A DNA stretch of 62,146 nt, the filler included, from Dugesia japonica (Eukaryota): NCBI GenBank assembly GCA_001938525.1. It is 6 parts of 6 records of this genome, joined end to end, with 100 filler letters (N's around TTAATTAATTAA, not from the genome) between each part and the next. Parts side by side here need not be neighbours in the genome. Positions count along the whole stretch, not along the records: positions 1 to 9,796 come from MQRL01619697.1; 5 more parts are not named here. The stretch is one strand, 5' to 3'. Shown one piece after another: positions 1 through 46,179 of the stretch. Every line of letters begins with the position of its first letter. Positions within the stretch are counted from its first letter, which is position 1. The translations under genes were made by a program, and so were the position numbers. Under the pieces are notes generated by a model, which made no database searches, was not told where the DNA came from, and saw only the letters and a list, made by a program, of their open reading frames with translations.

Positions 1-144
1 CAGTTAATTTATTTTAAAATTACCACAACATAACATTTTTTAAAATACCACAACGTAATATATTTTAAGAATTTGTTTCTAAAATTTCACTCTCCTTTAT
101 ATATATATATACATCTCAATAAATTTGGCATTTTTGTAATAATT

Positions 145-3100
145 ATGTATAATAAAAAACCTCATGAAATAACTGTAATCAAGTTGATCAACTGGGGATT
201 AGTGTTCAGACCCCAAATAGTAATTCAAGAAATAGAAACAGGCGAGTTTTATCATAATCTCGAAGAAACATTCTTAAAAGAAATCGTTCCCCCCCAGTCT
301 CAAAAGTATATGCGGAAAAGATTGGCGACAATAAGGGTAATGGACCATCTGGAATTGGTGCAAACCGAAGCATCATGACTAACATTAGCCCGAATTGACG
401 AGATACTGGTAGCCACCCAGAAACTCCATGATACAATAAAGGAAGAAGTATACCTAAAGTTGACAAATCGATTGGTGGAATTATTGGAAGTTATAAAATT
501 GATCACTACTGAGGAAAGTGATTGGACAGGATGGTTACCAGTACATTACGATTGGGTAATATCCAATATGGGATTATCGGATTACCAAGTATGGTTGTAT
601 AACCCAGAAGGTAATATGAAACTCACACTCACAGGATTAATGGTAGAAGATCTAGAAACGGCACTCAATCAAGCAGGGTATCCATGTGTAACTGATAAAT
701 ATGTATGTACTCCAAGTGCAATAGTGGATTTTAATGCCAGAAAAAGACATATCTACGATTTTGGAGTAAAACCAGGAGAGGACATTGAAATCGTAGTATT
801 AGACAAACACCCTGGTATTGATTATGATATATGGGTAACGAAAACCGGCAGATCAGCATTGGAAATCATGGGAGAAATGGAATATCTGTATAAACAAGGT
901 GTAGAACCTATAAAAATAAAGATACTTTCCACAGTATTAGGAAAGAAAGATAAACTAACAAAGGAAGAAAGAAAACAGTTACTGATGACACGTAATGATT
1001 TTCTCAGACAACGACTAGAAAGAAGAGAAGAAAAATGCAACATGATAAGAATGCGACAGATGCCGTCAAGGGAAGTTATAGCAATGCGTAAAGTGGAGGA
1101 AATGGTTAAACGGGTGCAAATAGAAAAGGAAAAGTTACCCCGAGAAACATATTGGATGATAATGAACCGAATCTATGACATATATGACGGACTGGAAATA
1201 CCAGAAGAGATTGAGGATCAATGGCTCATGATTAAACAGAAATATGCCGAGGAAATATTAGCCACTACCAAAATTCAGGACTACAAATTATACCTGAATA
1301 TAGGTAAAAATGAACAAGACTTGACTAGATACAGTCGATTAAAGCCTCAAGGAATAACTATGATGGATCTAATGGATGCCCTTACCGATAAGTGGCGAGA
1401 GCATGGATTGAACATGGTACCACCATTTGTAAACGGCAAATTGATAGAAACAGACGATGAAGATAAACATATATTCCAATGTCATGCAAAGCCCGGAGAA
1501 ATATGTGAGTTAGATGTAGAGGAANAGTCACGGACGGTCCAATCACCAGATCTAGAAGAAAGAATGGAGGAAATAACGGAAATATATGTATCCGAAGTAT
1601 TGGCAGGAATTAAGGAACAAGTGAAAGAAAATCAGAAAATACAGAATATTGATAATCTACCAATAATTACTACAAAATCAGTTGAATTTCCAGAAGGAAC
1701 GCCGACAATACGGGATATTAGAAGTAACTACACGAAACACATAACTGAGGAATCTGCCACCTTTCACGCAATTAACGACTTATTACGAGTAACACGAAAA
1801 ACTCGACCGGCGGTGAATATCAAAGTATATTGGAAAATGATGAATAATCTACGGGATTTAGCCACCTATGGACAACTCAGCTTGTGGGCTCAGGCACAAT
1901 GGTGGAAAGAGAAGAACTTATACGAAGAGGAGGTACAAAATACTTCTGCTATATCTGATTACTCCATTCGAGTCAGTCTACTTAACAAAGAAAGGAGCAT
2001 AAAAAAGGTAGATATGATAACCTTGGAAGGATTAACTATCCATCATATTTTGAAACCTATAAAAAAATAGTTATGGCCTAAATCGATCAAGTCTTATAAA
2101 ATGCAGGCGGGAGCAACAATGATCATATTAGCTAAGAAAGAGGATCATATTTTCTTACATGATATCAAACCAGGAGAGGTTACTGATATNNNNNNNNNNN
2201 NNNNNNNNNNNNNNNNNNNNNNNNNNNNNNNNNNNNNNNNNNNNNNNNNNNNNNNNNNNNNNNNNNNNNNNNNNNNNNNNNNNNNNNNNNNNNNNNNNNN
2301 NNNNNNNNNNNNNNNNNNNNNNNNNNNNNNNNNNNNNNNNNNNNNNNNNNNNNNNNNNNNNNNNNNNNNNNNNNNNNNNNNNNNNNNNNNNNNNNNNNNN
2401 NNNNNNNNNNNNNNNNNAACCTCGGAAGATACCGCCAAACCCAAGTTATTACCATTTAAACAAGAATTTGTTGGTCTCTTCAGCTCCCCTCAAACCGAGC
2501 GGATAACAAAGATAATCTCTGATTTCTGTTATTTTCTGGGAAGGATACCCCAGGCAAAATTCTGGAAGGCATTTAATTTGCTAGCAGATCTGTCAAAATA
2601 TACCGAGATAGCAAAGGAGGAGTGTGCTAAGTGGGAATCTATACTCAAATCTTATACGAGTGCAGTTAAGACCAGTGCCAAAGGAGAAGATTTTCAGGTC
2701 ACCATCGAATATAGGACACCCAATAAAAAGCCTAGAAAAGAACCAGAATTGGCCTTAATGCATATACCACATTTTGACAGTACATCAGCAGCAGAATTAC
2801 AAGAAATTATAGAATCATTAGAAATAACTGATAAACAGAGCGGCTATATAATCACAAGTGACCATCTGAGGTTTCCTATCAAGTTTGAGGGAAAACAGCA
2901 CTTAATGAATATTGGGCTAAGACCAGGCGAAAATACCTTTCTCCAAATACAGAAACCCGAAGATTACACTCCAGGTCCGGTAAAATCTATGGAAGAAGTA
3001 TTGCAGCAACTGGAGGAATTATACGAACAAGAAATCAACAGTGGGAAATTGTTTGAAGAAGTCGACGATAAAACAGTCGAGATAAATATTGAGGCATGGG

Positions 3101-4215
3101 AAGCCAGTAAAACTTGGGGAAGTTTGGCACGAGTAGTAATGAAAATACTGCTAACTCTGGAAGAAAACTTGGCATTATTGAGACATGATAAAGTCATACA
3201 ATTAATCCTGAAGTTAAATCAGTTACGAGCTATAAGTCGTATGCCCGAAGATGTGATAAATGCAATATTAACTAAAGCGGTTCGAATGTTAACGAATGTG
3301 GCCGTCGACATAACAATCAAATTTNNNNNNNNNNNNNNNNNNNNNNNNNNNNNNNNNNNNNNNNNNNNNNNNNNNNNNNNNNNNNNNNNNNNNNNNNNAT
3401 TTATGAATCAACAACATAGCCTTGACAAAGAGGAAACCGGAACACAACCATTACTACAGGAAGACGACATAGTACTCTATTATAACCAAGTAATAGAACC
3501 AGACCAAATGAGATTGCCAATGAAATATATGGGTGTTTGGCCAGGAACTAAATTGAAAATTTACGTAACATCAAAAGATGAGGAGAAACGACGACCACGG
3601 GTCTCAGAAGAAAGATGGAAACAAGAAGCCAGAGAAGTAGTGGAATATTATTTAGAGGAAATACATCCACTGGTGTTCGCAAGAGCCAAACTCCCTAAAC
3701 AAGAACAGAAGAAACAACGAGTAGAGATGGTAGCAGCTCTGACCAACACACCAGTTAAAGATGAGAAGCCGGAAGACAACTTACCAAAGTTATTCGAATT
3801 GCTAGTGGGGGACAAACTAATAAAACCAGAAATCATACGGCGATCCAACATAGTCTTACAACAAGATCTGACAGTAGAAGACCTCAAGAAACTACAACGA
3901 TTAATTATGGCCATCAAAGTATCTCATGTATGGGATCCCATTCAATTCAATAAAACTTTGGTTAAATGGAGTAAAGCGAAAATAGGACAAGCCACTCCGT
4001 TGGAAATAAAATTCAGAATAATCGATCCGGAAGGAGATAAAACTACGGTTAAGATACCAGTATATAATACGGTAAAACACTTACGAGATAAGATACCATT
4101 TAAGCCAACCTACAAACTCCTGGACGATGATGGAATAGTCGAAGATACCACTTCAATTGGACTAATGAAAATCGATTTAGTTAAACCTAATACGTTATGG
4201 ATTTTTCCAGAGTGA
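145..4215 (+). pseudogene. Tandem-repeat protein with six ubiquitin-like (beta-grasp) domains separated by helical bundles
   Basis: One frame broken by stops at 376 and 2068 and by N gaps. Recurrent motifs are HIYDFGVKPGED / HIFQCHAKPGEI / HIFLHDIKPGEV / HLMNIGLRPGEN / MKYMGVWPGTK and YWMIMNRI / YWKMMNNL / FWKAFNLL, with a period of about 600-730 nt. Confidence 0.65.
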
Positions 4216-4934
4216 GGTACACTCACTCGGAAAGACGCAGATCCGTATAAGGCAGCAGATAAAACTCGACCGATAATGGGGGAGACCTCAGACATGTTAA
4301 AAGAATATAAACATCGAACAGAAATTGCAGCTAGTCAAATATTAAGACCGACAACAGATCAGTCCGGAAGTACATAAGTATCCCGAGAGATATAAAAAAC
4401 CCCTTAAACAAGCCAGGATTGGGAAGGTGAAATATTCGGATCACCATCAGCAGACGAGTTAGTGGAAAATGAAAACGAATTACAAATTACAAAGTACTCT
4501 CCGCCAGTTAGAAAAAGTGAAGAAATAAAGAGCAAAGAGCTGACAAGAAGTAAGAAATATGGCCCTAGCAAAGTCGACTTAGATGAGGAAGATATATTAG
4601 AAGAACAACCACTGTCACCAATATTGAGCAGAATAGCAAAATAATTGCCAGCTTCAGTTATGGACGATTTAATGGATACCAATCACCCCTTAGAAATGGA
4701 AAATCTTATAGAGACAGAAGAGGAGGAAGTGCCACCAAAACCANTGCGCACCCGAGTAGATGCGGAAACAATTACTGAACCTCGTAATAGAGGTTGACCA
4801 AGAACAAAACGCCCAGGAAATCCTGAGGAGGAAGAAGCATTAAAACAAAAACGATTAACAACATCAATAAACCATCAAACTGAGCGATTAGCAACAGTGT
4901 CACAGGAAAGATATGAAAATTCAACGGATGAGGA

Positions 4935-5345
4935 TATGCCTACAGAAGTAGTAATACGGCAACTATTACTAATGCTTTACCCGGAGCTAAAGATATGGAT
5001 TGGTAAATTTCAGCTATCTGATAGTCTCCGACCACTAGTCAAGGAAATAGAAGCAGCCATTAAGAAATTTCCTGCTACTAAAGGAACTAGTCATGGTACA
5101 AGAGACAATCTAGAAGGGGTAATGGATGAGTTGTTACAGGATTCACCAACAAAAGGAAGGATATAGTAGTATCGATAGCCCATTTAATCAATCAAGCACA
5201 CCTATCAATCGCTAGAAGTAAGCCGTCAAAAAACTTCATTCTTAGTAAATTACCGATAGTGGAACTCATACAAAATAAAATCATACCTTTGATAAAACAA
5301 CAAGGAGGATGGAAAAAATTTATTGAGTTCATATGCCCTAAGCCA
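4935..5345 (+). pseudogene. Bcl-2 family-like domain (one frameshift)
   Basis: BH1-like VMDELLQDSPTKGRI/VVSIAHL spans a frameshift at about 5163. BH2-like LIKQQGGWKKFIEF is at about 5287-5330 and BH3-like LSDSLRPLVKEIE lies upstream, all at Bcl-2-like spacing. Confidence 0.7.
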
Positions 5346-5460
5346 CAGCCATCACATAAAAATGTAACGAGAGTAATAAGGATTGTTCGGGAACAACTAA
5401 ATGAGATCGAGAATGGATGGACGCGTGGACCTCGAGGAAATTCTTGGCAAGCATTAACCA

Positions 5461-7400
5461 ATACTCTTGTTATTCCTAATGATGGGCAGAAGTGAAGCCA
5501 TTTTGGCCTATGACTGCGATGGGATGCAAGTTGAGAAGGAAGTCTTCTCATTAGTAGATACTGAGGAATGTCCAGACGCAAATCCGGAGAAAATTTCACT
5601 CCGTAATAATTCGGTGTACCACTTATATCAGGAGTCAGATTATTACAAGGCTCAAGTGCGTGAATGTACGGTAACCGTAAAGACATTTATATTTCATTGT
5701 GGTTACCACAGTAATACCTCGATAATCGATCCAGGAATCATAAGACATCCGGTACATCTAACGGGAAAACAATGCGATGAAGGATTCACAACTGGTAAAA
5801 TTACTATCAAACATGGAACTCAGGTTGTCGCTAAAAAAGAGCATGTAATTGATCAACCAATAGAAGCAGCCGGAAGTATATCGTCACATAAAGGTAATTG
5901 TGAATATGATACAACCACTATAAGTGGAAAAGTATGGCAATATGCGGTAGCAATCGAAACTTATACGGTGGAACTCAAAGAATACGAAGCATTTTTTGAC
6001 ACCCAGGATTGAACTATGAAAGGAAGGTCATACTGCAAAGCAGCAGATGGAGCATGTAATACAGGTTCGTCAACATTAACATATAAAGTAGATTACCAAG
6101 ATTGCAAGTTAGCACACTTAAAAGAAGCAGTGTTTGACGAATACCAAGGACAACGTGCTATAACACCTATTGATCACGATACAAAGGAGAGTAATCTGAA
6201 AGATAGGATAGATAATTTTAAAGAAACCATAAAATCAGGCCCGAGGTCATACAATCAACAATGGCACACCACACCTACGGTGCTAATGTCCTCAGAAAAG
6301 GATGAGACTATCCGATTAATCAAAGGAAACTCTATGTCTAAATGCGGGCAAATAGTATATAAGACAAATTATAAANGAATATTCGTATCGAAACATCGAA
6401 TAAAAACAGCCCAAGCCGCAGTGATGACCCAAGACTTCAAACTGCACTTATATGCTAATAATAAAATGGACAACTTATTCCACCGGATGCAAGATACTAT
6501 TGGATTGATGTACCATGACCTCATACAAAATGATTGCACCTTAAATAAGGAAATACTGAAGACGAAGTTAGCAATGGCAGTTACGAATCCAGATAGTGTA
6601 ACTCCGTTAATTCCGTTAGAAAAATGATAATTTGGTCGAGTGGTAGGTGAAGTAATGTACCTATACAAATGCAAAGCAATAGATGCGGAATTTTCATCTA
6701 ACNCAAAACCTTGTTACAATGAGATAGAAATCATCCACAACAATGAGAAACGTTATGTACAACCGATTACTCGAATAATATCACCATTGGGATATAAGTC
6801 AAATATCATAAATTGTTCTAATGTATTTGGACCACAATACATAATGACGGATGGTTCATGGATAAGATTTCCACAACGAATGGCAGTAGGAGTCGAACCA
6901 CGGAAATTCTCAATGTACCGATTAAATGGGGGGATGCAATTTACCCCGATCGATGTAAACAAAGGAGGAATTTAAAGCAGAGAAGATCTAGAGAAAGCAA
7001 GGGAATATATGTTGTTCCCAGTCCGAAGGATGCAGATCCTCTCAAATATCGTACAATTAACAAGTGGAACTAACATAGACGGACGTGTAAATTACGACGC
7101 ACTTTTGTCAGCAGATCATTTCCAGAAAGCCACTGAAAACGTCATGCGGAAAATGTGGGGAAGATTTATAAAATTTGGCCAAGCAATGGCAGGATTGTTG
7201 GGAGTCATGCTGATAATTTCAGTAGCACGAGTAGTAATTACCCAGTTGTTTGCATGTTTCGACATATACAAAAGGGAAAAGAAAGTGAATTGGAAACTGG
7301 TAACCAGAATATTCCCTTTCCTAGCAAAAACTATGGTGCTTAATAGTCACTCTAAAGATATCGACAGAGTAAAACGATTTATTCGGAAACTCGGACAAAT
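5461..7400 (+). pseudogene. env: Envelope glycoprotein, class III fusion type (chuvirus/Monjiviricetes G-like, herpes gB-related)
   Basis: Signal-like ILLLFLMMGRSEA followed by AYDC, a Cys-rich ectodomain with HCGYHS, FGRVVGEVMYLYKC, PCYNE..YVQPITRII..NCS and GGI(Y), then a TM segment FGQAMAGLLGVMLIISVARVVI. In-frame stops at 6010, 6625/6628 and 6973. Confidence 0.8.
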
Positions 7401-7984
7401 CAGAGGATCAGACAAACAGGTCATAATGCAACTCAGATTATTGTGTGAAGAAATGAGCAATGCTAAAAAGAAAATATCATATTTCAATCAATTCAAGGAA
7501 AGATTTAAGAACAAAAATGAAAGTAGTAGCGGAAGTGATGATGATAGAGGAGGAAGCAGTGGAGTACCACATGTACCTAGTTATAAAACTGCCATGGAAT
7601 ATGACGCAGAATTCAAAAGGCAACAATATGAAAAAGTCAGCAAAATGCAGCGACTGAGAAATGCATTGAAATTCGGAGGAAACGAAAATACTCCAGCACC
7701 AGCACAAATGTACTATAACGCTTACCCGCAACACGGTTGGCAACCTATGAGTCAAAAACCACCACAGGTATGGGCACTAGGTCCCAAATATAACACTCCT
7801 TATATAAATGCACCACAAGCCCCTAATATGGCATTATTAACAGAAAATAATTTGGCAACCATTGACCGAAGGGTTACTGAACAAAACTTGCACTCCCCAA
7901 ACAACCGGATCACTGAGGACGATAAATTAGAAACACACACTGTGTGTATGATGATTTCTCAACGAGCAAAATTATTACAAAAAA

Positions 7985-9710
7985 GAATTAAAATAGATGG
8001 GAGATGGGTGATAGCTATTATACAGGAGCAAGTAAGACGTTAGTCCACAAAACAGTATTAAAAGATTATCGACTACTCCGGATAACCATTACTAAAGGGG
8101 TTATCATCACCGCTTCAGGAGAAAAGATCTCACCTGTTGGGGTAGCAATATGTGCAGTGGAGAGTGACGGATTACGCCTGTGGCATAAGCTACAAATAAT
8201 GAACGAATTAACCTTTGACTGTCTTATAGGGTTGGATCTCTTACCACGCATCTGTCCAGAAGGAATTTTTGACTTAAGAAAACTGACGATACGGGAGAAT
8301 CATGAACACGAATATACACTAGTAGGGTATCATAAAACTAGAGTAATAACTAAACAAAAAAGTCCACAACAATGGAATCAGCCAACAACCAATCAACAAC
8401 CACGAAGAAGCAGAGGTGAGCAAAATCCCTCAAACTCCGATCCTGGGAAAACTACCGATACATCCACCATAATACAAGACGATTGGATCAGGTTCCAAGA
8501 ACGGGAACCAAGATGGAAAACCAAAAAACCACCTAACTCCAACCATAAAACTACAGACGTGGTATGTGCAAGTCTCAGTGGCGGACCAGTATTAACTATC
8601 ATGGGTAAAATCAATGGTAGACCTACAACTGCATTATTAGATACAGGAGCAACCATCTCGTTGTTATCAATAGAAGAAATTGCAATAACAGAATATAAAA
8701 ACATATTACCTACTAATACCACGGCAGATGTGGCGAACGGAAGCAGTTTCAAAATTTTCGGGGAACTAGCTTGCGAAGTAGAATATCAAGATAACAAAAT
8801 TAAACACAAAATGATAATAGTGGAAATGGCGGGACAATGCATCTTGGGTACGGATATTCTCCCAATTTTGATGAAAAACGGCATTCTAAACTTTTCCACT
8901 TTACAGTTGCAATCTTTGGAAGGTTATACACATGTTAAAGATCATGAAGTATTTACTACCNNNNNNNNNNNNNNNNNNNNNNNNNNNNNNNNNNNNNNNN
9001 NNNNNNNNNNNNNNNNNNNNNNNNNNNNNNNNNNNNNNNNNNNNNNNNNNNNNNNNNNNNNNNNNNTACCTACATCAGGAAGGTTAACTACGGTCAATAA
9101 AAGTGGAGAAGTACCGGTTAGCTTGGTTAATTTTACTGAAAAGGATATCAAGATCAAGCCAAATTCCAGAATAGGCACATTAACACCCATTGAACCAGAA
9201 ACCAATGAAATTGAGGAAATAGTCGTTGAACCAGTAATCGATAGAACATTAAAAGTGGAAACAGAAACACTATCGGATGATCAGAAACAGGCAATATTAC
9301 AATTATTGGAAGAATTTAGGGATATCTTTGCATGGACTGATGAAGAGCTAGGTATGTGTACCGCTACAATGCACACAATTCTGTTAACAGATGAAATCCC
9401 AAGCAAGCAGAAACCGTATGCCATGTCGATGGAGAAGAAGGAATTTGCGAATAAAGAAACAGCTAAATTAGTGAAAATCGGAGTAATAGAACCCAGTTGT
9501 TCACCATGGCAATCGCCTGTGAACCTCGTAGATAAAAAGGTTGGGACACAGCGATTCTGCATCGATTACAGACGATTAAACGCACAGACTAAAAAGGATA
9601 CATATCCACTACCAGATATCAACGAATTACTTCAATTACTGTGTAACGCCAAAATATTCACTACGTTGGATTTACGAAGCGGGTATTGGCAAATACAAAT
9701 TAAACCCGAA
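7985..9710 (+). pseudogene. pol: pol: two retropepsin proteases, dUTPase-like region, N-terminal half of reverse transcriptase
   Basis: PR1 is RIKIDGRWVIAI/(D)TGASKTLV...DCLIGLDLL with a frameshift at the catalytic Asp. PR2 is ALLDTGATISLL...ILGTDIL. The dUTPase-like stretch is SGEVPVSLVNFTEKDIKIKPNSRIGTL. RT motifs: SPWQSPVNLVDKK, RFCIDYRRLN, TYPLPDI, LDLRSGYWQI. Confidence 0.92.
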
Positions 9711-9796
9711 AGAAAATTAAATACTAAAGAAAATGGGATAAACCCGAGAATTTTTGATAATTTTTGAAAATTTTTTCTTCTCAAATCGTAACAAAA

Positions 9797-9896
9797 NNNN
9801 NNNNNNNNNNNNNNNNNNNNNNNNNNNNNNNNNNNNNNNNTTAATTAATTAANNNNNNNNNNNNNNNNNNNNNNNNNNNNNNNNNNNNNNNNNNNN
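9797..9896. other. Artificial contig-joining spacer (also at 22819-22918, 32262-32361, 41224-41323, 50280-50379)
   Basis: Each is 44 N + TTAATTAATTAA (a stop-codon-rich linker) + 44 N. Confidence 0.95.
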
Positions 9897-19620: not shown

Positions 19621-19811
19621 TACGGAAATAATTATTATTTAATAATTTAAGACAATGGAAAGTGATAAAATTGAATATTAAAATTTAATCAATTCTAAAA
19701 ACACTTATATATTTATCCTATCAAGCATAGTTTGGAGTAGTAAAATAAATGATGTCTCAAAATATTAGTTTTGATTTGGAAAATTAATTTCCATTTGAAG
19801 ATTTACCTAAC

Positions 19812-20760
19812 ATGATGGCAGCGTTAAATACCGATTTTATTACAGAGAGGTTATTGTCAAATATGTTTTGCAGAAGAGATGATATTGAGAAACTCATCAA
19901 AAGGTGCGAATTGTATTTTGAAGCTAAAAGCATCATTCAGGTGAAACAACAGGAGAGATTAGTCTCTTGTTTGCTAGATGAAGATTTGTTGGAAGAATAT
20001 ATAGACGTTGAAAAATGTTGAGGTTTCCAGGCTCATTTACGTATGGCATTTGAGAAAGAGAAATATGTTATCAAATACCTTCAACATTTGATTAATTGCA
20101 AGCGTTGAAATGAAGAGATTCAAGTTATTTTTAAAAATATAAAAGATTTACTAAAAAAATTATTTACAAATAAAGATTTTACTGAAAAGAAATGGTAGCA
20201 AAGATGCTAGTATATTGTTCAGATAACAAAAATGTTGAAGAAGAAGTGACTCTGAGGAAACAACAATATATATAGAAGAAATTGAAGAAACAATAACGTT
20301 AGTAAATCGAGTAGAAAAAAACAGAGATTGAGTTGATGCAGTCAGAAGTTACGCGAGAGTTACAAATCGAAATTATCAGAAACCTGTAAATCATACAGTG
20401 AATAGACATGTAGAGCAAAGAAAGGAAAAACAAAATATCAAATACTGGTTATGTCATAAGATCGGTCATACTAAAGCAAATTGTCCGATGAAAAAAGGGG
20501 TAGAGTGCTGGAGTTGTCATAACACAGAACATATAAGTCGAGATCGTCTAAATAAAAAACCAACAAAATGTTTTGGCTGTGAAAATGTTGGTCATATTAG
20601 AAGGTTATGTCAAGAAGTGAAATTTAAACGATGTGGTAATAGTGGACATAGGGCAGAAGATTGCTACACAAATTGTATATGTAATGAAATCAAAATCGAG
20701 AAGATTGAATTGGAAAATTGGTTAAAAGTTAGAAAAGAAGAGAAAGATCAAATAAAAGCA
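19812..20760 (+). pseudogene. gag: Gypsy gag remnant with multiple CCHC zinc knuckles
   Basis: CHKIGHTKANC, CWSCHNTEH, CFGCENVGHIRRLC and RCGNSGHRAEDC. It follows an LTR-like end ..CTAACA and PBS-like TGATGGCAGCG, and is homologous to 43536-44100. Confidence 0.8.
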
Positions 20761-21399
20761 TTCAGATCAAATAAAAACCACATAATAATGAAACTCTTCT
20801 GGAGAATATTAAACAACATGTTTGGAATTTATATAATGGTATCCATTAAATAACAAACAAAACAACATAATAATAACTATTTTTTAATTACATCCAATCA
20901 TTTCATCCTTAAATTAAATTTTTTATTTGATGATTACACATTGGCATTTATCGCATAGACAAAATTCTTTTTCTGTATTATTGTTACAAACTTTGATTAC
21001 AACTAAATACACAGGGATTAAGTTTATAATCTTACGTCAGTGAAGAGAGGGTTAGTACAGTCCGCTACTATCTACCTTCATTTGTCTTTCATCAACGGAA
21101 TATGAAGAAAAAGAAGATAGAAAATTGACTATCAAACCATGCAAAGCATTGTCTCCACGTAATTGAAATTGAAAAGCACAGCCCAGTTCAATAAATATAT
21201 TATATTAAAATTTTAAAAGGAATTCCTGCTGATTTGGCAAATGTTTTAGATGATAAATAAAATTCTTCAGTAGACATTTTTAATGGAGTAGTCAGAGTTT
21301 TATAATAATTTGTAAATAATTATTCGTTTTATGTTTTCATTGTAAACAGATTGGTTTTCATCTGTATTTTTTAATAAATTGGTTCATGAGAGTTAAATG

Positions 21400-22763: not shown

Positions 22764-22918
22764 TGTTATCTAATATCAATAATTAAAACCTAAATTTTGA
22801 TCTAAGCTTTTATATTAANNNNNNNNNNNNNNNNNNNNNNNNNNNNNNNNNNNNNNNNNNNNTTAATTAATTAANNNNNNNNNNNNNNNNNNNNNNNNNN
22901 NNNNNNNNNNNNNNNNNN

Positions 22919-25900
22919 GGTTGTGGAATAGATTTTATTGAAAATGGAAAAATAACATCGGTATATATTGGATGACTAATTTTATATGGACTTTTAGAGT
23001 ATATTCTGAATCTGTTTTCAATAGATGTATCAAAATCTGGAACTTCGTATTCGAAAATATTTCCTGGCAAGTGAACTATAGGTATCCAGTCCTTTGTTTT
23101 ACTTGTCCATTTTTCAAGAACAAATGATTGTTGTGGTTGATATTCATAGCTTCCGGGCATTTCCCACATTACTTTAAATGGTTTAACAGTTTGTGATGGA
23201 TAAATATTAATAGGTTGAACTAAAATATCTTTCTCTAAATTAGGCATTTCAATTGGTGCTGATCTTGCAGATGAACCACAACCCTCAGAATTAAATGGTG
23301 TGATTTGTACAACCCAACTGTGATCAGGATTTAATTGTGGAAGTATACACCGGTTTTCATTAGGACCGATTGTTGCGATACTTGTTTCTTCTCCTGTTGT
23401 CAAATCTAAAAGTAAAACTTTATAACCTTTAATGGGTGATCCTCCATCATCCATTGATTTAAACCATTTAGCAAATAATCCAAATTCTTCTGGTTCCACT
23501 CTTACATTTAATACAGATAATGGTTTTGATAATTTCATTTGTGGTTTGACAGAGCGGTCCATTAACATGGGCGGAAGGGCTTTGCCAGATTTATCATATG
23601 GAATAACTCTAATCCATATCGGAGTGTCTGCATTCAACCCATACATTAAATGATTTCGTTTAGTTCCTCTAACATCAGTTTCATATTCCCACTTTTTGAG
23701 ATCAGGATTCCATTTTTCAACTCTGAATTTATCGATTTCTGTTGTTGGGATGTAGTCATTCCACGAGACTTCTAAACTGGCTGAAGTTAACGGTTTAACA
23801 ATTAAAGGATTTTGATTTTTAAGTTCTATTTCTGTAACTGCAGTTGGTTTGGGATAATACTTTTCTGATTTTGGTAAACCATAACTTCCATAAATGTATT
23901 CTTTATCTATCCAGGAAAGATTTTCCGGTTTCAAATTATAATTCAAACCAGGACTAGAACTGTAATCGGGTTTGAAATTATTATTATAAAAGTTATCTTT
24001 TTCATATGATTTTTTAATTCTTGGTTCGAACTTTAAAATATTCTNNNNNNNNNNNNNNTCTTCATGTTCATCATATACATTGGGTAATCTAACTTTTATT
24101 GGCAAACTTCTTAAATTATTAGTGTCATCATATACCGTCAACTTTAAATCTCGAGGTTTTCTGTTTGACAACAAAGATAAAGGAATACTATAAGTACTTA
24201 AAGAATCTGGCAAATCAATAACTGGTTTCCAAACATTTTCATTGCAAATTTTTTCTTCAATTAAAACATGGCGATTAGAAGTATCTAATTGATTCGGTAA
24301 ATTCCAATTTAAATCGAGGAATTCATGCTCTTTATTTAATCTTAATTTGAAATTTGAAATCGGCGCCAATGGTATTCTTTCAGAAGTCAAAACTGGATTC
24401 GGTAAATTTCTTGGTTCACTAATTGCGTCAGGATACAAAGCTGAAACACGGAAATCATAATATGTGTTTGGTTTAAGGTTATCAACAATATATTCAACTG
24501 GCTTTGATCTATCTTTATCCTTTGGTTTGTAGGTGAATTCAACTGGTTGCCAATTATCAGAAGAAGAACTGAGATTTTTCTTTTCAACTTTATATGATTG
24601 AACATCATTCGAAGATGGAGAAATCCATGATAATATTACTTTATCATCATTAGGTTGTTTATTTATTGCTTTAAGACCTTTAATTGATTCTGGTTTTATT
24701 ACTTTAACAAAACTCTCCTCGCTAATTAATGGTTTACTTAACCCATTTGCATTTCTTGCAAACACACGAAAAAAGTATTCTTCATTTGGAAGAATATCAC
24801 TAAATATTGCTTCAGTGTCTGGAATTTCTAAATAAGATTTCCAAGGTCTTCCTCGTCTTTTAAATTCAATTTGATAACACGTTGTAGGTAATCCGCCATC
24901 GTCAATAGGAGGTTTCCATGAAATAACACAGTCACTATTGACAGGTTTCATTTTTATCGGTCCTCTTGGTTGACTTGGGACAGTCGATTGTTTTTTCGGT
25001 TGAATGGAAAATTCGTTTTCTAAAGGCTCTGATATTCCATTTTTATTTTCAGCAACAATTCTAAAATTGAATTTTGTGCCTTCCAATAAATATTGAGCAG
25101 TAAATTCCAAAGGTTGACCAATAATATTGGGAATTTTTCCAATTTCTTGCCAACTTGTACGAAAATGTTCTCTTTTGTAAATTCGATAAGCGGTAATTGG
25201 TGTGCCTCCATCAAATAGCGGCTTTTTCCAAGCTAATACACAACTATTGTTGTCAATATCGGTAATAATGAGAGGACCTTGAGGAGCAGTTGGTACAGCT
25301 GAAAATAATATAATTAAATANNNNNNNNNATTACATTACATAAAACAAAAACTATCAAAAAATATAGTTCAACATTTCCATTTTATTTACTTATTAATGA
25401 AGGTTGAATATTAATTATATGATTAAAAAGGTTTTATTAAGATTATGGAAATAAAAGAAAAAAATATTCCTTGTAATTTGAATCTAATATAAAGTGGTAA
25501 CGTTGACCGTAAACCTTTTTTACATACATACAAAAATATAATATAAAAACAATTCAAGACTGTGATGATGAACACTAATTTCAAAAAGTTTGGTTTAAAA
25601 CATTAGTTTATTAACAATAACCATGTAACAATATCTAAAAATTAATAGATGACCTTTGACTAAATTTCTTTCTTTAAAAGTCAGATAGGGCTTCAAATCC
25701 ATTTCGAAAATGAAATGAGTAATTCTCGTCAAACAAATCTAACAGTGATTATATGATGGTTAAGTAAAACTAAAATTACATTTACACGTATAAGAAAATC
25801 TGATATTAAACTTCATATTAAAATAAAATTGAGGAAAAATGTATTTCAAAGTAACTCAATATCTATTTAAATATTAATTTTATAAATTTTCTCTAGAAGA

Positions 25901-28543
25901 GACAGCGGACCAGACTTTAGACAATCCTGAACTAAGCCGATTATTTTCAGACACTCTTTGTAAAGAGATGAGTTTTATACAATTATTATCCTTTGATATT
26001 AATTCGAAATACACCCTCTATTTACTAAAAAGTATGAAAGATTTAAGAAAACCGAGTAAAATTTAAAACCAACATAAACACAATAAAAATATAATGATTT
26101 CTATGAATTGCAAATCACTCCACACTTTTACTTCGACTTGGAGAACGTAAATGGATTCGCAAAGGAGCGTAAATCCATTCCAAATTTTATCTTTCTGAAA
26201 AATGGCAATAACCCCTGATCATTGAAATAAAAAATTCCAAAATGTATCTGATTTTTCGTAGCAATGAATTTTTATAAGTTTATTTATTAGAAATGATTAA
26301 TTTTGATAAAATGAAAGCTAACTTGTTACTAATTCAGGGGATACCGGTTCAAGTGTTGATACAATATCCCCGATTCCATATTGATTTACTCCAGCTACTC
26401 CAAAGTAATATTTTTTATCTGGTGATAAATTACCAATAGTAATTTTGTCGAGATAATGATCAACATTAGATATTTGAACCCACTGAGAATCAGGTTTATC
26501 TTCTTTCTGATAAATTAAGTAGCTATTAACATGATGTTGATGTTTCTGGCCATGTTTACACTCATTTGGAATTACCCATTGTATAGTAACACTAGAAGAT
26601 CCTTTTCCAATAACCTTTACCCATGCAGGAGCATCAGGAGCGAAATGGGCTTCTTCAATTGAGAAATCGTCTGATTGTAGCAATTCTCCAGTTCCATATT
26701 GATTTGTTGCTGAGATACAAAAATTATAAATTTTTCCTGGTAGAAGATTTTTAGCACGAATCGAATTTTCCCCATATGGTACTCTGCCAATTTTATACAT
26801 AACTGGACTATTTTTATATTTAATGAAACAATTAAAATGCGAAATAGGTGCATCTCCTTGATCAGTTGGATTTTTCCACGATATCAAAACTGAAGTGTCT
26901 GTAAAATCATTAAAATTTATTGGTGGATTTGGTTTATCTGGTGTACGAAATGGATTCACACAAACAATAGGTTCAATTGAGCATAAAGGAGAACTTTTTC
27001 CTTGATCGTTTTCAGCAGTTACTCTAAAATAATACTGATTACCCGGTTTAAGATTTTTTGCAACATAATTGCATGTTTCGGCATTAGGTGTGCGGCCAGT
27101 ATATTTCCAATTTATCCCATCAATACTATGTTCAATACTGTAACTTGTTGGGTTTCCGTGTAAAGATGGTTTCCATTTCAATTCAATGCTATTAAAAGAA
27201 TCACATGTTCCAACTAATGGACCAACAGGCTGAGACGGTATAATTGGATGTGTTCTCAAATTGAAAGGATTAGAATATAAAAATGAACCTGGTCCTAAAG
27301 AGTTATGTGCATTAACTCTGAAAGAATAAATTTTATCTGCATCTAGAATAGGAGTATTAAAAAATAGGTCGCTGGCTTTGCAATTTCCGAGATTCTCCCA
27401 GTCTTTATTATTGGTTTTTATTTCAACATCAAATTTATCAATTAACAAGCCACCGTCATCAAGAGGTAAATTCCACGATAAACGTAAATTATTATCTGAA
27501 GTCAATAAAAGTTTCATTGGACCTTCAGGAGCTGATGGTACTTTCTTCGGTCTATTAAAAGAAATAGATTGTTCAGATTCCAACCAATCACTTGGGCCCA
27601 CTTCATTAACTGCTTGTACTCGGAATTTATATGCATATCCATCTTTTAAACCACCTACATCATATTCAAGATTATCATTTTTTAATCGAGCAAGAGGAAT
27701 CCAGTCATTTTTCCCTCCAACTTCCTTAATTTGCAAATTGTAATTTTCAATAGGTTTGCCACCATCTAATTTTGGAGTTTTCCATTGGACTTTTACAGAA
27801 GAACTATCAAGTGATGTTGAAATCAAGGGTCCTTCGGGTTTTGACGGACATTCTGAAACAAAAAAAAATAATGACGTTACAAAAAATTTCCAATTTTTAA
27901 GTTAAATATTAATTTAAAAGTTTCTTACCATATGGACTCTTCAGAATAATCGGATTCAGAGCATTCAAATATTGACCTTCTCCGTTAATATTAGAAGCAC
28001 ACACTCTAATTCGGTATGGAACACCTGGAACTAATCCTTCGATAATACTTGATGTATTTATTGGATTTATTTTTATTGGTTGACTAAATCGATTTTTCTT
28101 CTCATCTTTATACTCTAATAAATAGTTTCTTAAAGGTTCATCGTGATCAGAAATTGGGGGTTTCCAGTTTACTTTCACGGAATTTGGCGAAACTTGACAC
28201 AACTCTAACGGTCCTTCCGGTATGTCAGGAACATCTGTTACTTGAAGATTTACAAGCACTTCATTCTTTCCAGCTTTATTAGAAGCTACAATTGCATAGG
28301 TTCCAGTTGAATCTTGTTTGACATTTGGTAAATTAACATAATAATTATTTCCATATTGTTCAACTTTCAACGTTTCCAACGGAATCGATTTTATGGGTTT
28401 TTTGATTATTTCTAATATTGGCTTTACATCTGATTGAATATATAAAGGAACTCGCAAATTTGAACCAGGACGAATTTTAAAATCTGAAGGCCCAATTAGA
28501 GATATTTCTGGTGGATCTGTTAAAAAGAAAAATTTATCACAAC

Positions 28544-28608
<65 letters not shown>

Positions 28609-28658
28609 NNNNNNNNNNNNNNNNNNNNNNNNNNNNNNNNNNNNNNNNNNNNNNNNNN

Positions 28659-28694
<36 letters not shown>

Positions 28695-30055
28695 CATGAA
28701 TTCTTAAATTTCACTTACTTATTGCAATTGGTACTGTTTCTTTAATAGCTTCTTTATACTCTCTAAGTTGTTCAATCAAATCTTTAGGACTTTTTAAAGA
28801 TTCAGAGACTTCGGAAACAATTTTCGGTTTTACCGCTTCTAAATAAATGTTTATTATTATTTATTTTAATTATTACACCCAATACCCTGTTTTAATATAA
28901 TCCATTCAGTTGGCAATGATGGTGCACTTTTACCATCGACATTTTTAGCCAGTACTCTAAATTGATATTTACATTTATTATTCAAATTAGTAACATTTAA
29001 ATAGGGTGTTTTGATTGGTTGTATTGTTATGGGAGTCCATAAATTCGTCATATCATCTTTTTGCTCTACAATAAACATGATAGGTGATGTAGTGGTTGTT
29101 TGAAGTGGATTCCACTTTAAATGAACCTTGTCCAATCCAATATCTTTTACTATTAGGTTTTCTGGCATAGATGGAACATCTGTAAAATATATCTATTCAT
29201 AAAATAATAAAAGACAAAGACATACCAATTATTTGTTGCAAAGAAATAGGTTGGTCTATCTCTACAAATTCACTTTTACCGATAGCGTTTTCAGCAGCTA
29301 CTCTGAAACTATAGGTTCCGTTAGGTGTTAAATTAAATACGTTTATATTATATTTTCTATCCCCAGAAGTTGTTCCACATCGAGTCCAATTATTGGGACT
29401 TGAACCGATAATTTCACGCTTTTCAATTATATAATTAACTATTTTTGAACCACCATCGTTAGTTGGAGGGCTCCACTCAACAATAGCACAATCAGACATG
29501 TTAGAAACTGCTTTAGCATTTTCCGGCGGAAATGGTCTTGTGAGAACATTTAAATGAATTTTAGCTGAGTATCGACCTGCTGAATTTTCTGCTACAATTT
29601 CATAATCACCGGCATCTTTTGGTGTCGTTGAATCAATAATCAAATTATATTTGTTTAAAGATTTTTCATTTAATTCATGTTTGTTGGACGATGAATCAAT
29701 AATTTTATTATCTTTCAGCCATTTAATTTTACATTCTGGATGACCTGTAACTGTGGCTGATAATGTTGATTTCTGTAATTCAGGTATTGATAATCCCATC
29801 GATGTTTTACTATCCAATTTAATCGTAGGTTTTTCTGAAAATGTTATTAAAAATTTTTGATTACATAAATTTAAAAATTTACCTTCTATTTCAACTTTAC
29901 ATGAAGTTTCAGCTTTCCCGAATTGATTTTCTAGTTTGCATAAATAAACACCTTCGTCATCAATCTTACATTTTTCTAATGTTACTGAACTTTGATTTTT
30001 TCCCGAGTTTACTTTTATTTTAGTCAAACCTCTGATAACTCGATTGTCTTTCAAC
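22919..30055 (-). CDS. Twitchin/titin/projectin-like Ig and fibronectin type III repeat muscle protein, partial, multi-exon
   Basis: Repeated Fn3 motifs (WxPPxxDGG, YxFRVxAxNxxGxS) and Ig motifs (DxGxY). Inferred exons with GT-AG boundaries: 29883-30055, 29226-29834, 28886-29179, 28719-28838, 27929-28516, 26323-27852, 22919-25298. Confidence 0.9.
28544..28692. repeat. (AAT)n microsatellite in an intron
   Basis: Directly visible; contains an N gap. Confidence 0.95.
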
Positions 30056-30306
30056 CTATTAAATAATAAAGTCACAAATACAATATTGTATTATCCAGAC
30101 TTAAACTAATCTAAAATCTCATCTTATTAATAGAAATTTTTCAAAAATATTAGAAAATTAAAATATGAAACCTTTTCATTCAAATTTTTACAAATTTGTA
30201 TCAATTTCTGTTTAGAAACCATTTACCATTAAACATGACAACTGTAATTTCACCAGTTTTTACATTAATTATTGTTTAATCATTCTTAGAAATTCTTGCT
30301 TTTTAA

Positions 30307-31612: not shown

Positions 31613-32361
31613 AATATAATAATATTCTGTTTTGATTTACGCATTTTAATTTTTAATGTCGATTTATTTACATTAATAAATATATGATTAAAATGTTTAA
31701 TTTTCTTTAATTTCCTGTTAAAGACTCAAATTTTCGACATTAGTCTAATTCAGGGTTTCACTTTCAGGTTCTAAGTTTTTTTATCTATTGAAACTATAAA
31801 ATTTCAATCAATGGTTAAGTCCAGCAATTATTCCAGTAATAATTGTAATTGTAATTGTAAAAAGTATATAGTATTAAAAATTGCAGAATTTCAATATCGT
31901 ATATTTAACAAAATACTCTAAAGATCTAAAACTCATAAATATTAGCGGAAATGTTGCTTTTCATTCTTCATTTAAAGACTTTGGGATAACGCTGCATTTA
32001 GATGTTGGAATTTAATAAAAGACTACGTTAAGGGTTCCTAACCTTTTTGTAGTGCGATTGCAATCGGATTTGAAAATAAATAAATAAAAGTATTATGTCC
32101 ATTATTATAATATACATTTTGTAACATATATTTCCAATAATATTATATATTTATTTAAAAAATCGAATTAGAACGATCTTGGACACTACATTTTATTTGC
32201 TAATTTTTCACAGTTTGAAATGTAAGATGATAATCTCAATCGTAAACAATCATCTAGGTTGNNNNNNNNNNNNNNNNNNNNNNNNNNNNNNNNNNNNNNN
32301 NNNNNTTAATTAATTAANNNNNNNNNNNNNNNNNNNNNNNNNNNNNNNNNNNNNNNNNNNN

Positions 32362-34234
32362 TATGTTTATGAAGTAGATTTAGAATATCCACCTGAGATT
32401 CATGAGAAAACAAAATATTTTCCATTAGCACCAGATAGAATAAATATTACACAAGAGATGTTAAGTAATTATCAAAAGAGTTTTAATAGAAAATTATCAA
32501 AGAAAAATGAAAAGCTAACATTAAATTTTGGAGATAAAGAAAATTATATATGTTTAGGAAGTACTTTAGATTTATATTTAAAACTTGGAATGAACATTAA
32601 AAAGATTCATAATAAATATAAAATGCCAGTAAAAACATGGTTAAAAGATTATATATTATTTAATATTGAACAAAGAAAAATAGCTAAAAGAAATAAAGAT
32701 GAATTTGGAGATTTCTTTTTTAAATTATTAAACAATTCATTTTATGGTAAAACATTAGAAAATATTAAGAAAAGATGTAATGTTAAAATTGTAGCGAGAG
32801 ATGAAGACATTCAAAAGTTAGCAAGTAAACCAACATATTTAGGATGTAAAGTGTTTTCAGAAAGATCTGCAGCAATACATTTAGAACAAACTAATTTAAA
32901 ATATGATAAATAAGTTTCAATATATAGGTTTCACAATTCTTGAACATGCGAAAGAAGTAATGTATGATTTTGTATATAATCAATTAGATCCTTTAATTGG
33001 ACATGATAATTATAAAATACATTACAGTGATAGTGTAACATTNNNNNNNNNNNNNNNNNNNNNNNNNNNNNNNNNNNNNNNNNNNNNNNNNNAATTAGAT
33101 CCTTTAATTGGACATGATAATTATAAAATACATTACAGTGATAGTGTAACATTTGACACTCCAATAATCTTAAGGAAAAATAATAAAGTTGAAATTAAAA
33201 AGATTTCAGAAATAAATCAATCTTACATAAAAAATTATTATAATGACAAATATTATTCTTATCCTGAAAATTATGAGATATGGACAAAAAATAATTGGGT
33301 TAAATTAAATAAATTAATTAAGCACACGATAAATAAAAAGATGTATAGAGTTAGAACTAAAATGGGGATTGTAGATGTTACTGAAGATCATTCATTATTA
33401 AATGAAAATGGATAAGAAATTAAACCGATAATTTAACATGTGAAACTAAATTATTACATAATAAAATTAAAAAGTTAATATCTTTAAATAAAAATATTAC
33501 ATGTGAGATTTTAAATAAAATAATTATAGATAAAGAATCTTTAGCCAAAGCATATTATTTGGGAACACTCTTAGAAATGAATTTAATTATTACAGAAGAT
33601 TTAAAACTTGATGAATCAACTTAAGAAATTGAAACTAATATGCAAAGTGTAACATTTTTAAGAGAAAGTATTGAAGATGTATATGATATCGAAACTGAAG
33701 ATGGATCATTCAATTGTGGATTTCATTTATTAATAAAAAATACTGATTCTATGTGTTGAGATATTTGGAAGAGATAATTTAGAAAATTTAAAATTAATAT
33801 TAGGAGATGAATTATTTCAGATGAAAGACGAAATGCCTAATGATGAAATATTAAAATTAATTTGTTTAAAAGCTAAATCATATGCTTTTGAATTTAATAG
33901 AAATGAATTAATAAAGAAACATAAAGGTGTTCAACAATTTAATAAATTTCTTAAAAGTGATTTTGAAAAAGTTATATACGATCCAAAAGAAACAGTATTA
34001 GGTGAAAATTATTCTATTAAATCTTTCTTACATGATTTAAAAATTAATCAACAAAGTAAAATTGCTTTCACTGGATTTGATGATAAAAGATTAATTGAAG
34101 ATAATGGAGAAATAACTTATGGTCATCATTTTAGATATTATTGTGAAAAATGTAACTATTATCATTTAATGTTAAATAAAATTAATAACATTTTAATTCC
34201 AAGAAATAATTCACCATGTATATTTTTCTTATAA
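32362..34234 (+). pseudogene. polB: Polinton/adintovirus-type family B DNA polymerase, C-terminal half, intein-containing
   Basis: YEVDLEYP..IH..FPLAP, FFKLLNNSFYGKTLEN, IGFTILEHAK, split YSD|TDS, MKDE, LKAKSY, HKGV, FDDKR. Confidence 0.9.
33143..33741 (+). other. Mini-intein (Hint domain) in PolB motif C
   Basis: Block A SVTFDTPII, block B VDVTEDHSLL, block F DVYDIETEDGSF, block G LIKN|T. About 200 codons with two stops and one frameshift. Confidence 0.9.
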
Positions 34235-34249
34235 GAAATGAGTGGAGAA

Positions 34250-35660
34250 ATGGATAATCTATTTCTATCTTTCTTTTTTAATATGAATTAAACCACCTCT
34301 AGATACGTAATATGTAAATGTTACTGCATTATGATTAATATTAATGATGTTATTAAATCTTTAATTGTAGAATAACCTCTTATCTCCAAATAAAGTTTAG
34401 TATTAATATTTACTGTTAAATTAATAATAAATGGTTCATCGAGACGATAATAAAATTTATTTGCAATTTTTACCATTTCTTATAAAATCTACATTAAGTA
34501 TAGATATTTCAGATGGAAAATAAAACCCTGGTAAATCCCCATCTTTGGAATGAGGAATGAAAATATTAAATATTAAATTAGAATGAATATCAGTAATTAT
34601 AAAAGGTAAGTAATTATCAATTAACACTCTTAAACTTTTATGTATTGATTCAGAAAAGGTTTCTTTATATTGTTTTAATAAAAAATAAATTCTATCCCCC
34701 AAAAGTTTGTGTAGTCTTGGTTTTATTCTTTCAATTTCATCAACAATTTTTAATTTTAACAAATTAACACTTAATTCATGTAAATAAATTTTTTTTGGTA
34801 AAATTATTTCAACATAGTTTATAATACTATCTTTATTAATTTCACTGCTTTCATTGTAAATTTTTATATTACTATCTCTAGGTGTATTTTATGAAAATGA
34901 TTGTGTAAAATGATTAATTTTAATGATATATGTAAATTTTTCAATTTCACAATAACCCTCTATATTTATACAAAGTTTTTCATTAATGTTTGCATGTAAA
35001 AAATAGAAAAATATCTTCAAGATAGAAATATTGTTTAGTTTTCAAAGTTTTCATTTTACCCTTTCTTTCAAAATCTAAATTATATACATACTTATCCATA
35101 ATAGAAAATTGTGCAAGAATTTCATAATAGATAATTGGAAATATTATGATAACACTAGTCCTAAAAACATAAAGTAAGTAATTATCAATTAACCCTTTTA
35201 GACTTTTAAGTGTGGATTCGGAAGTATTTTCTTTATATTCTTTTACTAAAATATTAATTCTATCAATAGAAATTTTATGTAGTTTTGGTTATATTCTTTC
35301 AATTTATTTAAATATTGCTTCAGGAATTTTTATAAATTCTATAGTTAAATTATGTAAATAAATTCCTTTTGGTAAAATTATTGAAATAAAGTTTATATTA
35401 GTATCTTTATTAATTTCGGTGCTTTCATTGTAAATTTTTATAATATTATCTCCATTACGTTTAATATATAAAAATGATGATGAAATTTTATTAATTTTAA
35501 TAGTGTAATTAAAAAAATTAATTTCACAATAACCCTCTATATTTATAAAAATTTTTCATTAATCTTTGTATGTAAAGATATAAAAAAGGGTTCTTCAAGA
35601 TAGAAATGTTGTATATCTTTCAAAGTTATCATTTTACCATTTTTTATAAAATCACCTTGA
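34250..35660 (-). pseudogene. Unknown decayed ORF(s) made of diverged tandem units of about 585 nt
   Basis: Unit starts DFIKNGK / DFERKGK / DFIRNGK near 35655, 35075 and 34490; IERIKPRLHK..LIDNYL occurs twice. Confidence 0.55.
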
Positions 35661-38600: not shown

Positions 38601-39661
38601 ATGGTTTTCTTGTATTATAAGAAATGTGTTATGGTTCAAGTTTTTTTAGTAGCATTTACTCCATATACATTTAATTGAAAGTTATTTAAATTCTCGAAAT
38701 TTTTTTATATAATCAATATTCATAGGAAATTTAAATCCATGATATCTTAAATCTGATAAATAAGGAATGTATTTTTCTACTCGTGTTGGATGATCAACTA
38801 CATATTTATGTGCTAAGATTGAATAAAGAAAACATTTATTATCTTTATTTTCTATGTTGATTACACCTGGTTTATGAAATGGTAATTTGCAATATGTTGC
38901 TCTACCTAATGAACGACATTTACTTAAATCAATTTTATAATCCACAATTTGCATCATTGTCCAACCTGATCCTTCATCTTCAATATATCGTTGTAATTCA
39001 TTAAACATTTCATTAACACCTTTTTCTATATCATTTTCAATTGTAAATCGTTTATTGTTTGTATATGAAATAAATCTCTTTCAACATTTTCACTATTTAT
39101 TTCTTTTGTATATTTACATTTTACTGTCATACTTATAACAATTCTTTTCCATAGTTAAAATATTTGGTAATGATTTCTTTTACTTCATTTTGAAAGTCAC
39201 TAATTTCTCTAACTGGGATTATCTATTATTTCATCTACATTTCTTTTCATTAACACTTTACTTTCCTTAAAATATTAAATTTCAAAATCCTTATAAATTC
39301 TAAAAATATCTCTAATTTCTGGATCGAAATCAATTGCTTCTTCACCAGCTAATTCTCCAAATAAAACTCTATTTACCTTTTCTTTATGTTTGTCAGAATT
39401 TAAATGTGTTTTTGCATGATTTTGTCTTGTAAACCGTTTGTTACATATTAAACAACGTAATGGAACAATATTTAGATTTCCACAAACTGTTGAATTTAAA
39501 TGTTCTAGTAAACCATTTTCTGTTATAAATGATCGATGACATATTTCACATTGAAATGTTCTTTCTTCTCTGAAACAAGTTCGAGATCTAACATGTCCTA
39601 TTAAACCTGCTAAATTTCTAAACAACTTTCTACAATTATTACATCTTATTATATCACTCAT
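35660..39661 (-). pseudogene. polB: Second Polinton/adintovirus-type PolB ORF: C2H2 fingers, GSGW domain, endonuclease VII-like Zn motif, 3'-5' exonuclease and intein-containing polymerase
   Basis: Three C2H2 fingers (39275-39661), GSGW..NKCFLYSILA, CRYC..KDHNH..GEFRG, SGYDNHLF, FLDS, FPYEY, DVLILAD..ENFR, GIRGGYS, YIDQNSLYG, HSD|TDC, MKDE; many stops and frameshifts. Confidence 0.88.
35774..36322 (-). other. Mini-intein, second and more decayed copy
   Basis: HSD|SVTKDTLII ... SFNCGFPLILKN|TDC; deletions remove most of block B and part of block F. Confidence 0.85.
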
Positions 39662-40059
39662 TATCTATAGAAATAATGAAATCATACAGCTACTAAAAAG
39701 GGAAGTAGAAAGATAGTGGCGGGCAACCTCTGCACACATGCGGTACCCCTACCCCCGACGTGATGAGATTATTACATAACTGAGGTTGTATTTTTCTAAT
39801 GAAAATAGGCGGTGGCACACATTTGTGTGCGTAACATAATGTAAATAATCTTGTCGCGATAGAATTACGTAAGAGAGGTTACTTTTTTCCTGTGTATTTA
39901 GTTAGGAAAAATTATTTGCACACAAATTGTGTCATGAGATTAATTTCATCGGTGAAATTTTACGTAATAGGATTAAGAGAGGCTACTTTTTTCCTGTATT
40001 TAGTTGGTAAAATTTTTTATGGGAATTTTTTAAAGAATCCGTGCAAATTGTTCATTTTG

Positions 40060-45908: not shown

Positions 45909-46179
45909 CGAACCGTTTAATACATTTATTCAATATGGCAAATTGTATTTTGTATTTATAAATTATTTTCTTTTATAATCATTGGCCGGTTAAATACTAG
46001 AATAATTGAATACAATTCTTTTCAAAAGCAATTCTATTTGTTAATTAAAACAAAAAAAATGAATGAAAAAAATATTGTTTTTAATTTAAATTAGTTTTTC
46101 AATATACAATAGTTTTTTTCAAAATTTTAATTCATTAAAATAAAAGAGCCGATCAAAATTTTTTTTTGTTTTTGATAAT

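Follow-up and report, generated by a model that had tools for sequence, protein, structure and literature searches.

Open reading frame remains of a probable single broken gene

Do the reading frame fragments strung along positions 145-9710 of this DNA descend from one gene, and what kind of element carried it? The stretch lies in the first part (MQRL01619697.1, positions 1-9,796) of a 62,146-nucleotide window from Dugesia japonica (GenBank assembly GCA_001938525.1), in which six parts of six records are joined by 100-letter fillers. Positions 145-9710 very probably hold a broken, truncated copy of a multicopy Ty3/gypsy element of the Burro or GAG-ENV-POL gB-type kind, with env ahead of the enzyme genes, that likely once coded for one long polyprotein. 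The modules follow one another in the order of at least four repeated modules, a Bcl-2-like domain, a signal peptide, a gB/chuvirus-type Env (PF24664), two aspartyl proteases, a weak dUTPase match, and half of a reverse transcriptase (RT) that is closest to Ty3.

Exactly nine open reading frames (ORFs) of at least 60 amino acids (aa) lie in frame +1 between 34 and 8043, as an earlier note on this DNA had counted. Stop counts by frame trace an open path that runs in frame +1 over 145-5163 (8 stops), in frame +3 over approximately 5163-5460 (no stops), again in frame +1 over 5458-8020 (4 stops), and finally in frame +3 over 8020-9710 (no stops). The path spans ∼3,190 codons, close to the ∼3,200 given before, and contains 12 in-frame stops (376, 2068, 4213, 4375, 4393, 4405, 4642, 4795, 6010, 6625, 6628, and 6973) versus ∼218 expected from base composition; it is therefore not a chance product and represents one decayed coding unit, interrupted by three frame changes, the 12 stops, and three N gaps (2190-2417, 228 bases; 3325-3398, 74 bases; 8961-9066, 106 bases). 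The earlier note held that only three small indels separate the fragments from a single frame. The frame changes were found at the places it had named (near 5163, 5460, and 8020), but the stops and the gaps have to be passed as well, and this copy cannot make the polyprotein. The element is ∼38% GC and strongly A-rich; its flank is ∼25% GC. The features, in order, are as follows.

391-3069, + strand: four tandem, mutually homologous modules, identified with leave-one-out profiles (R1, 391-918; R2, 1108-1620; R3, 1747-2190; R4, 2497-3069); stops at 376 and 2068, N gap at 2190-2417
3097-4212, + strand: two more distant candidate modules, doubtful (R5, 3097-3669, spanning the N gap at 3325-3398; R6, 3787-4212)
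4213-4935, + strand: acidic, Ser/Pro-rich linker with six in-frame stops
4936-5330, + strand: Bcl-2-like domain with the frame change near 5163 inside it; a BH1-like stretch lies at the break and a BH2-like motif in frame +3
5458-5505, + strand: hydrophobic stretch resembling an internal signal peptide, interrupted by the frame change near 5460
5458-7353, + strand: Env, gB/chuvirus-type fusion glycoprotein (PF24664; class III by literature) with four in-frame stops
7970-8260, + strand: first aspartyl protease, matching the proteases of relatives; the frame change near 8020 breaks the catalytic motif (frame +3 part: PF13975, E = 0.003)
8601-8861, + strand: second aspartyl protease, catalytic DTG motif kept (PF13975, E = 5e-9; PF00077, E = 3e-7)
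9102-9185, + strand: dUTPase-like remnant between protease and RT, adjoining the N gap at 8961-9066 (PF00692, E = 0.002; 18 bits against a cut-off of 22)
9405-9710, + strand: N-terminal half of a Ty3/gypsy-type RT, cut before the catalytic box
9723-9796, no strand assigned: unrelated repeat closing the visible element, 89% to window positions 40887-40960; reads and contigs continue into other sequence at 9723, and an assembly gap follows

An env of the gB/chuvirus type upstream of a Ty3-like pol

The Monjiviricetes fusion glycoprotein family PF24664 was matched by four consecutive ORFs (E = 3e-29 to 8e-14) that cover profile positions 8-606 in order. A transmembrane stretch follows at ∼7174-7260 by hydropathy, and the conserved ectodomain start has a hydrophobic stretch before it in 16/16 sequences compared. 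Comparison of the Env with PDB sequences gave no match, and the class III fold, which the earlier note had proposed, is taken from the available text of PMC13524379. Env (5458-7353) lies upstream of pol, with the proteases starting at ∼7970 and the RT at 9405.

Capture of a chuvirus-type glycoprotein by BEL/Pao elements is described in the available part of PMC7642597, and those elements share the PF24664 family with the window element. In a tree of 16 close relatives and the first 30 stand-alone glycoproteins of 560-900 aa, the window Env groups with all 16 relatives, apart from the 30 stand-alone proteins (P0041 among them), with a FastTree support of 1.0. Thus, unlike the BEL/Pao elements as there described, the window element combines a Ty3-like RT with an Env that stands before pol in the same chain and apart from the stand-alone glycoproteins; the arrangement expected of BEL/Pao, a separate env of the stand-alone group downstream of pol, is not what it carries.

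The half RT domain, which ends at ∼9710, is solid. Its best relative of solved structure is the Ty3 RT (E = 7e-23 to 2e-22), followed by the next entry at 7e-15 and by foamy virus at 5e-11, with murine leukemia virus also behind. It is 51% identical to that of P0001. For the RT tree, 34/48 rows were kept, after near-identical loci and the partial P0155 had been dropped; the window pairs with P0001 (support 95/98). Metagenome contigs were searched with P0001, and 80/108 loci were kept, with matches to RT or protease only. These loci were used as outgroups because none matched the Env or N-terminal queries. The protease and dUTPase assignments of the earlier note stand in part: the second protease is solid and the first is real, but broken at its catalytic motif, and the PF00692 match lies at the right place for a dUTPase-like region, but with a score under the family threshold.

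Unbroken relatives and sister copies

A search with the Env region against 1.84 billion representatives yielded 1,104 matches, and relatives were drawn from the best 150 of these. Nineteen proteins picked by length or rank, and then 10 more, were scanned against Pfam. Env and protease share one chain in 13 of the 19, RT is also present in 6, and RNase H and integrase are also present in 4 (P0005, P0007, P0016, and P0019). P0154 (4,844 aa), among the 10 further relatives, is a fifth chain running from Env through protease, RT, and RNase H to integrase. The protease precedes the RT in the window too, which is cut before RNase H and integrase; the full order of protease, RT, RNase H, and integrase is seen in these five relatives. 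Gag and integrase are not visible in 145-9710, but gag or CCHC matches precede Env in four relatives (P0010, P0015, P0019, and P0020), for example in P0020, where the order is capsid-like, CCHC, ubiquitin-like, Bcl-2-like, Env.

The relatives also bridge the breaks of the window copy. Single alignments to them span all four Env stops, and P0004, P0006, P0014, and P0020 are unbroken from the Bcl-2-like stretch into Env. An env in frame between a BCL2-like domain and a protease is the order found in the window, broken in this copy and unbroken in relatives such as P0004; indeed, every broken joint from the Bcl-2-like domain to the RT is continuous in some relative. The earlier proposal of a Gypsy lineage with env upstream of, and fused to, pol and with host-like cargo before it is borne out by these chains and by the Ty3-like RT.

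Within the same species, run X6 contained 10,997 contig pieces that cover 30/30 bins of the element, most at 90-95% identity; the family is therefore multicopy and diverged. None of the listed pieces has more than 338 bases on the element, too short for long-range linkage. One piece crosses the break at 8020 without a gap, which shows that this break is genomic. Because an independent contig piece shares it, and because Gypsy elements often use a frameshift before pol, the breaks might be taken as functional, with the modules forming separate ORFs or being connected, as ordinary gag-pol elements do it, through programmed frameshift or read-through. However, domains are interrupted by the breaks (once each in the Bcl-2-like domain, the signal peptide, and the catalytic motif of a protease, and four times in the Env ectodomain), the relatives are unbroken at the corresponding places, and none of the 7 contigs covering positions 6625-6630 has the double stop found there. 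Functional breaks are thus very unlikely, and decay of a single polyprotein gene is the preferred explanation.

All 14 ectodomain cysteines that are invariant across the aligned relatives are kept in the window Env, a degree of conservation that could also suit a domesticated gene serving the host, for example as a co-opted fusogen or apoptosis regulator. Such a role is scarcely credible in view of the interruption of Env and the Bcl-2-like domain by stops and frame changes, the many diverged copies, and the RNA reads: two runs, of which approximately a quarter each was read, gave 67 and 3 reads, mostly on the neighboring repeat, with 1 read at 95% identity. The copy is better regarded as a decayed member of a multicopy retroelement family.

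Several observations were made on the relatives themselves. The env-first relatives carry one to seven protease motifs per chain. P0154 combines seven protease-like motifs with an ankyrin match and a C2H2 finger between Env and RT; judging by this protein, proteases are repeated several times in the env-first group. Past the integrase, the same chain of P0005, P0007, P0016, and P0154 continues with a stretch resembling a signal peptide, a region resembling an ectodomain, and, in most of them, a late hydrophobic stretch, without a Pfam match; this region is likely a second surface protein, and the window is cut before the corresponding region. P0007 (HBK71150.1) is labeled as a hypothetical protein of a Flavobacteriaceae metagenome-assembled genome, yet it is a chain of Env, protease, RT, RNase H, and integrase, and it likely represents animal DNA in a bacterial bin. 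Viral contigs searched with the Env piece gave 16 pattern matches, none of which was confirmed.

Cargo upstream of env: repeated modules and a Bcl-2-like domain

The earlier note read the upstream region as ubiquitin-like repeats. Repetition is real for four units, R1-R4, with leave-one-out profile scores of 19-34 bits that were reached by 0/200 shuffles for each unit; the ubiquitin-like fold was not confirmed. R5 and R6 are unsupported by the same procedure, 15/200 and 56/200 shuffles, respectively, being equally good; R6 has a match (E = 2.4e-6) in P0021, in the region before Env. In each of R1-R4, an apparently helical part precedes one with a ubiquitin-like pattern, the fold being putative.

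Leads toward this fold come from two sources. The Atlas neighbors of R5/R6 include PF11976 and PF00240 clusters at 0.82-0.85, to be taken as leads only; for PF11976 (Ubi2/SUMO-like), the Atlas lead to the window modules, at 0.85, is accompanied by no Pfam or PDB match. P0020 has a weak ubiquitin match (PF00240, E = 0.03) at the position corresponding to the modules. The fold was not confirmed by a Pfam scan of the six window modules and the modules of three relatives, nor by the Atlas for R4, and PDB sequence searches with the modules gave no ubiquitin match. Single-sequence folds of modules had predicted local distance difference test values of 32 and 39, too poor for a fold search. A profile of the relatives' modules run against the window did not confirm the fold either, and only R4 and R6 exceeded nearly all shuffles. 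Cleavage of the modules by host deubiquitinases was considered and dropped because no di-glycine is present at any readable module end.

A tandem array of 4-6 such modules was not found described for Burro or GAG-ENV-POL elements in a literature search, although the original Burro paper and its supplements may cover cargo repeats. It is conceivable, if rather doubtful, that the family expanded a helical-plus-ubiquitin-like module into this array before the Bcl-2-like domain as a multivalent decoy or scaffold for the host ubiquitin/SUMO machinery within a retroelement polyprotein.

The Bcl-2 identity of the next domain, proposed in the earlier note, is supported through the relatives. A profile built from four relatives and the window piece matches Bcl-xL over BH1 and BH2 (E = 2e-4), and PF00452 is matched by 4/5 rows of the profile (best E = 2.3e-5). 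With a profile of the four relatives alone, positions 5160-5327 are the best match in six frames of the window (E = 0.005). The frame +1 half of the domain has no profile match, its BH1 reading being by eye, and single-sequence searches with the window pieces gave no match.

Relation to described retroelements

Contrary to the earlier note, which knew of no described element with this architecture, the same order has been published for the planarian Burro/GYPSM1 elements, giant gypsy-like long terminal repeat (LTR) retroelements that carry Ubi2/SUMO-like and BCL2 regions, an in-frame env with matches to mononegavirus fusion proteins, a protease, a dUTPase-like region, and an RT (PMC6431247). 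Decaying Burro fragments with stops and frameshifts are reported there as well. The window element shares with them the domain order from the Ubi2/SUMO-like region to the RT (with the Ubi2/SUMO-like fold of its modules unconfirmed and its dUTPase match weak), the single polyprotein that it likely once encoded, and the many copies. It differs in having 4-6 repeated modules and two tandem proteases, whereas Burro is described with one Ubi2/SUMO-like motif. Burro has an internal region of up to 25 kb and long LTRs; of the window element, 9.6 kb are visible. BURRO1 is silenced by PIWI, according to the available part of PMC8532177.

A second published group with this layout is the gB-type GAG-ENV-POL errantiviruses of flatworms, nematodes, and bryozoans, six of them from Schmidtea, as described in the available text of PMC13524379. 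Those six, Smed_errantivirus_1 to _6 (cysteine type C1a), likewise have a gB-type Env upstream of Pol, and their Env aligns with the window Env at the same cysteines. Smed_errantivirus_5 looks nearest, with ∼40% Env identity over ∼185 residues, counted by eye. The window Env is identical to none of the six, so the window element is taken as a distinct family, and the six are intact whereas the window copy is broken. The main text of PMC13524379, as far as available, does not mention ubiquitin or Bcl cargo in GAG-ENV-POL errantiviruses.

Thus, the window element is of the env-first gB-type gypsy kind and Burro-like by described order, and it is not assigned to a named Burro family. The layout is already published, so this copy adds little alone; the family seems new. 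What it contributes is one more distinct family among enveloped retroelements of a group that has been little studied, along with a suggestion that the cargo region can grow by tandem repetition.

Evidence that weighs against the assignment

Certain findings count against this assignment or its parts. No gag, LTR, RNase H, or integrase is present within the visible element at 145-9710, and the full layout of its family is therefore unseen; no gag match was found in 1-5163, and the copy may be cut on its 5' side, nor was an LTR-like repeat of 1-9800 found elsewhere in the window. In the RT tree, the 8 env-first rows occupy one side of a branch with a support of only 73/79, and GAG-ENV-POL elements are not monophyletic according to the available text of PMC13524379. 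The likeness to Burro-1 to -4 is one of described domain order, and the MATH, BIR, SMC, and ankyrin cargo of Burro has no match in the visible part (0 Pfam families for 145-5163). The ubiquitin-like label of R1-R6 is a lead only. Finally, no relative links R1-R5 to Env, R6 alone being linked, via P0021, and a search with the N-terminal region among proteins of 2,929-5,000 residues gave 0/1,997 candidates.

The missing link between R1-R5 and Env, together with the two N gaps inside the repeat region and the absence of any listed contig piece with more than 338 bases on the element, would also fit a mosaic, in which the repeat region (145 to ∼3,400) comes from a different element or became connected with the Env-Pol part across gaps in the assembly. 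Yet strand, frame, and base composition do not change from one side of a gap to the other, R4, which lies after the first gap, is homologous to the preceding R1-R3, and no gap interrupts 3399-8960, where R6, the Bcl-2-like domain, Env, and both proteases form continuous sequence. A mosaic is accordingly improbable, and a single env-first polyprotein element remains the preferred reading of the whole stretch.

Predicted working of the active family

In an active member of the family, one polyprotein would be threaded into the endoplasmic reticulum (ER) at the internal signal sequence, and cleavage by signal peptidase would release the Env ectodomain on the luminal side. Everything upstream (gag, the repeat modules, and the Bcl-2-like domain) would remain in the cytosol, where the residual signal anchor would keep the Bcl-2-like domain tethered to the membrane. 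Pol would stay attached to Env through the cytosolic tail of the latter and be released later by the proteases of the element; this attachment would carry Pol to the site of budding with no need for a gag-pol frameshift. The Bcl-2-like domain and the repeat modules may dampen host-cell apoptosis and ubiquitin/SUMO responses. Threading, release by signal peptidase, cutting by the element's own proteases, and cargo action are all predicted functions of the active family, drawn from domain order and resemblance. For Burro, cargo action on apoptosis and ubiquitin pathways was suggested without test in PMC6431247, which also leaves open whether these elements produce infectious particles or influence the death of host cells; a broken, truncated copy offers a poor handle on that question.

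Other features of the window

Remnants of another Gypsy-type family lie at 19794-20853 and 42457-44036, including a CCHC-knuckle ORF (20332-20853), an RT remnant (42592-43088), and related repeats. Neither the gag remnant (20.3-20.9 kb) nor the RT remnant (42.6-43.1 kb) shows any link to the 145-9710 element, and the idea that they are its missing parts was rejected. At 9797-9896 and at several later gaps, a 12-base filler sits between two runs of 44 N; this is an assembly linker, not biology.

Two facing decayed fragments at 32300-39700 have matches to type B DNA polymerase (PF03175) and a C2H2 zinc-finger ORF within a long imperfect inverted repeat; the region is likely Polinton-like. On the minus strand, a titin/twitchin-like host gene, whose long exons code for fibronectin-3 and Ig domains, occupies 22867-30090; its best database match reached 72%, and none of its close matches carried a species name. 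The same strand carries an ORF for a rhodopsin-type seven-transmembrane receptor (44955-45929), an endonuclease-NS exon (52048-52407), a hAT transposase fragment (56574-56966), and a GIY-YIG fragment (60783-61250).

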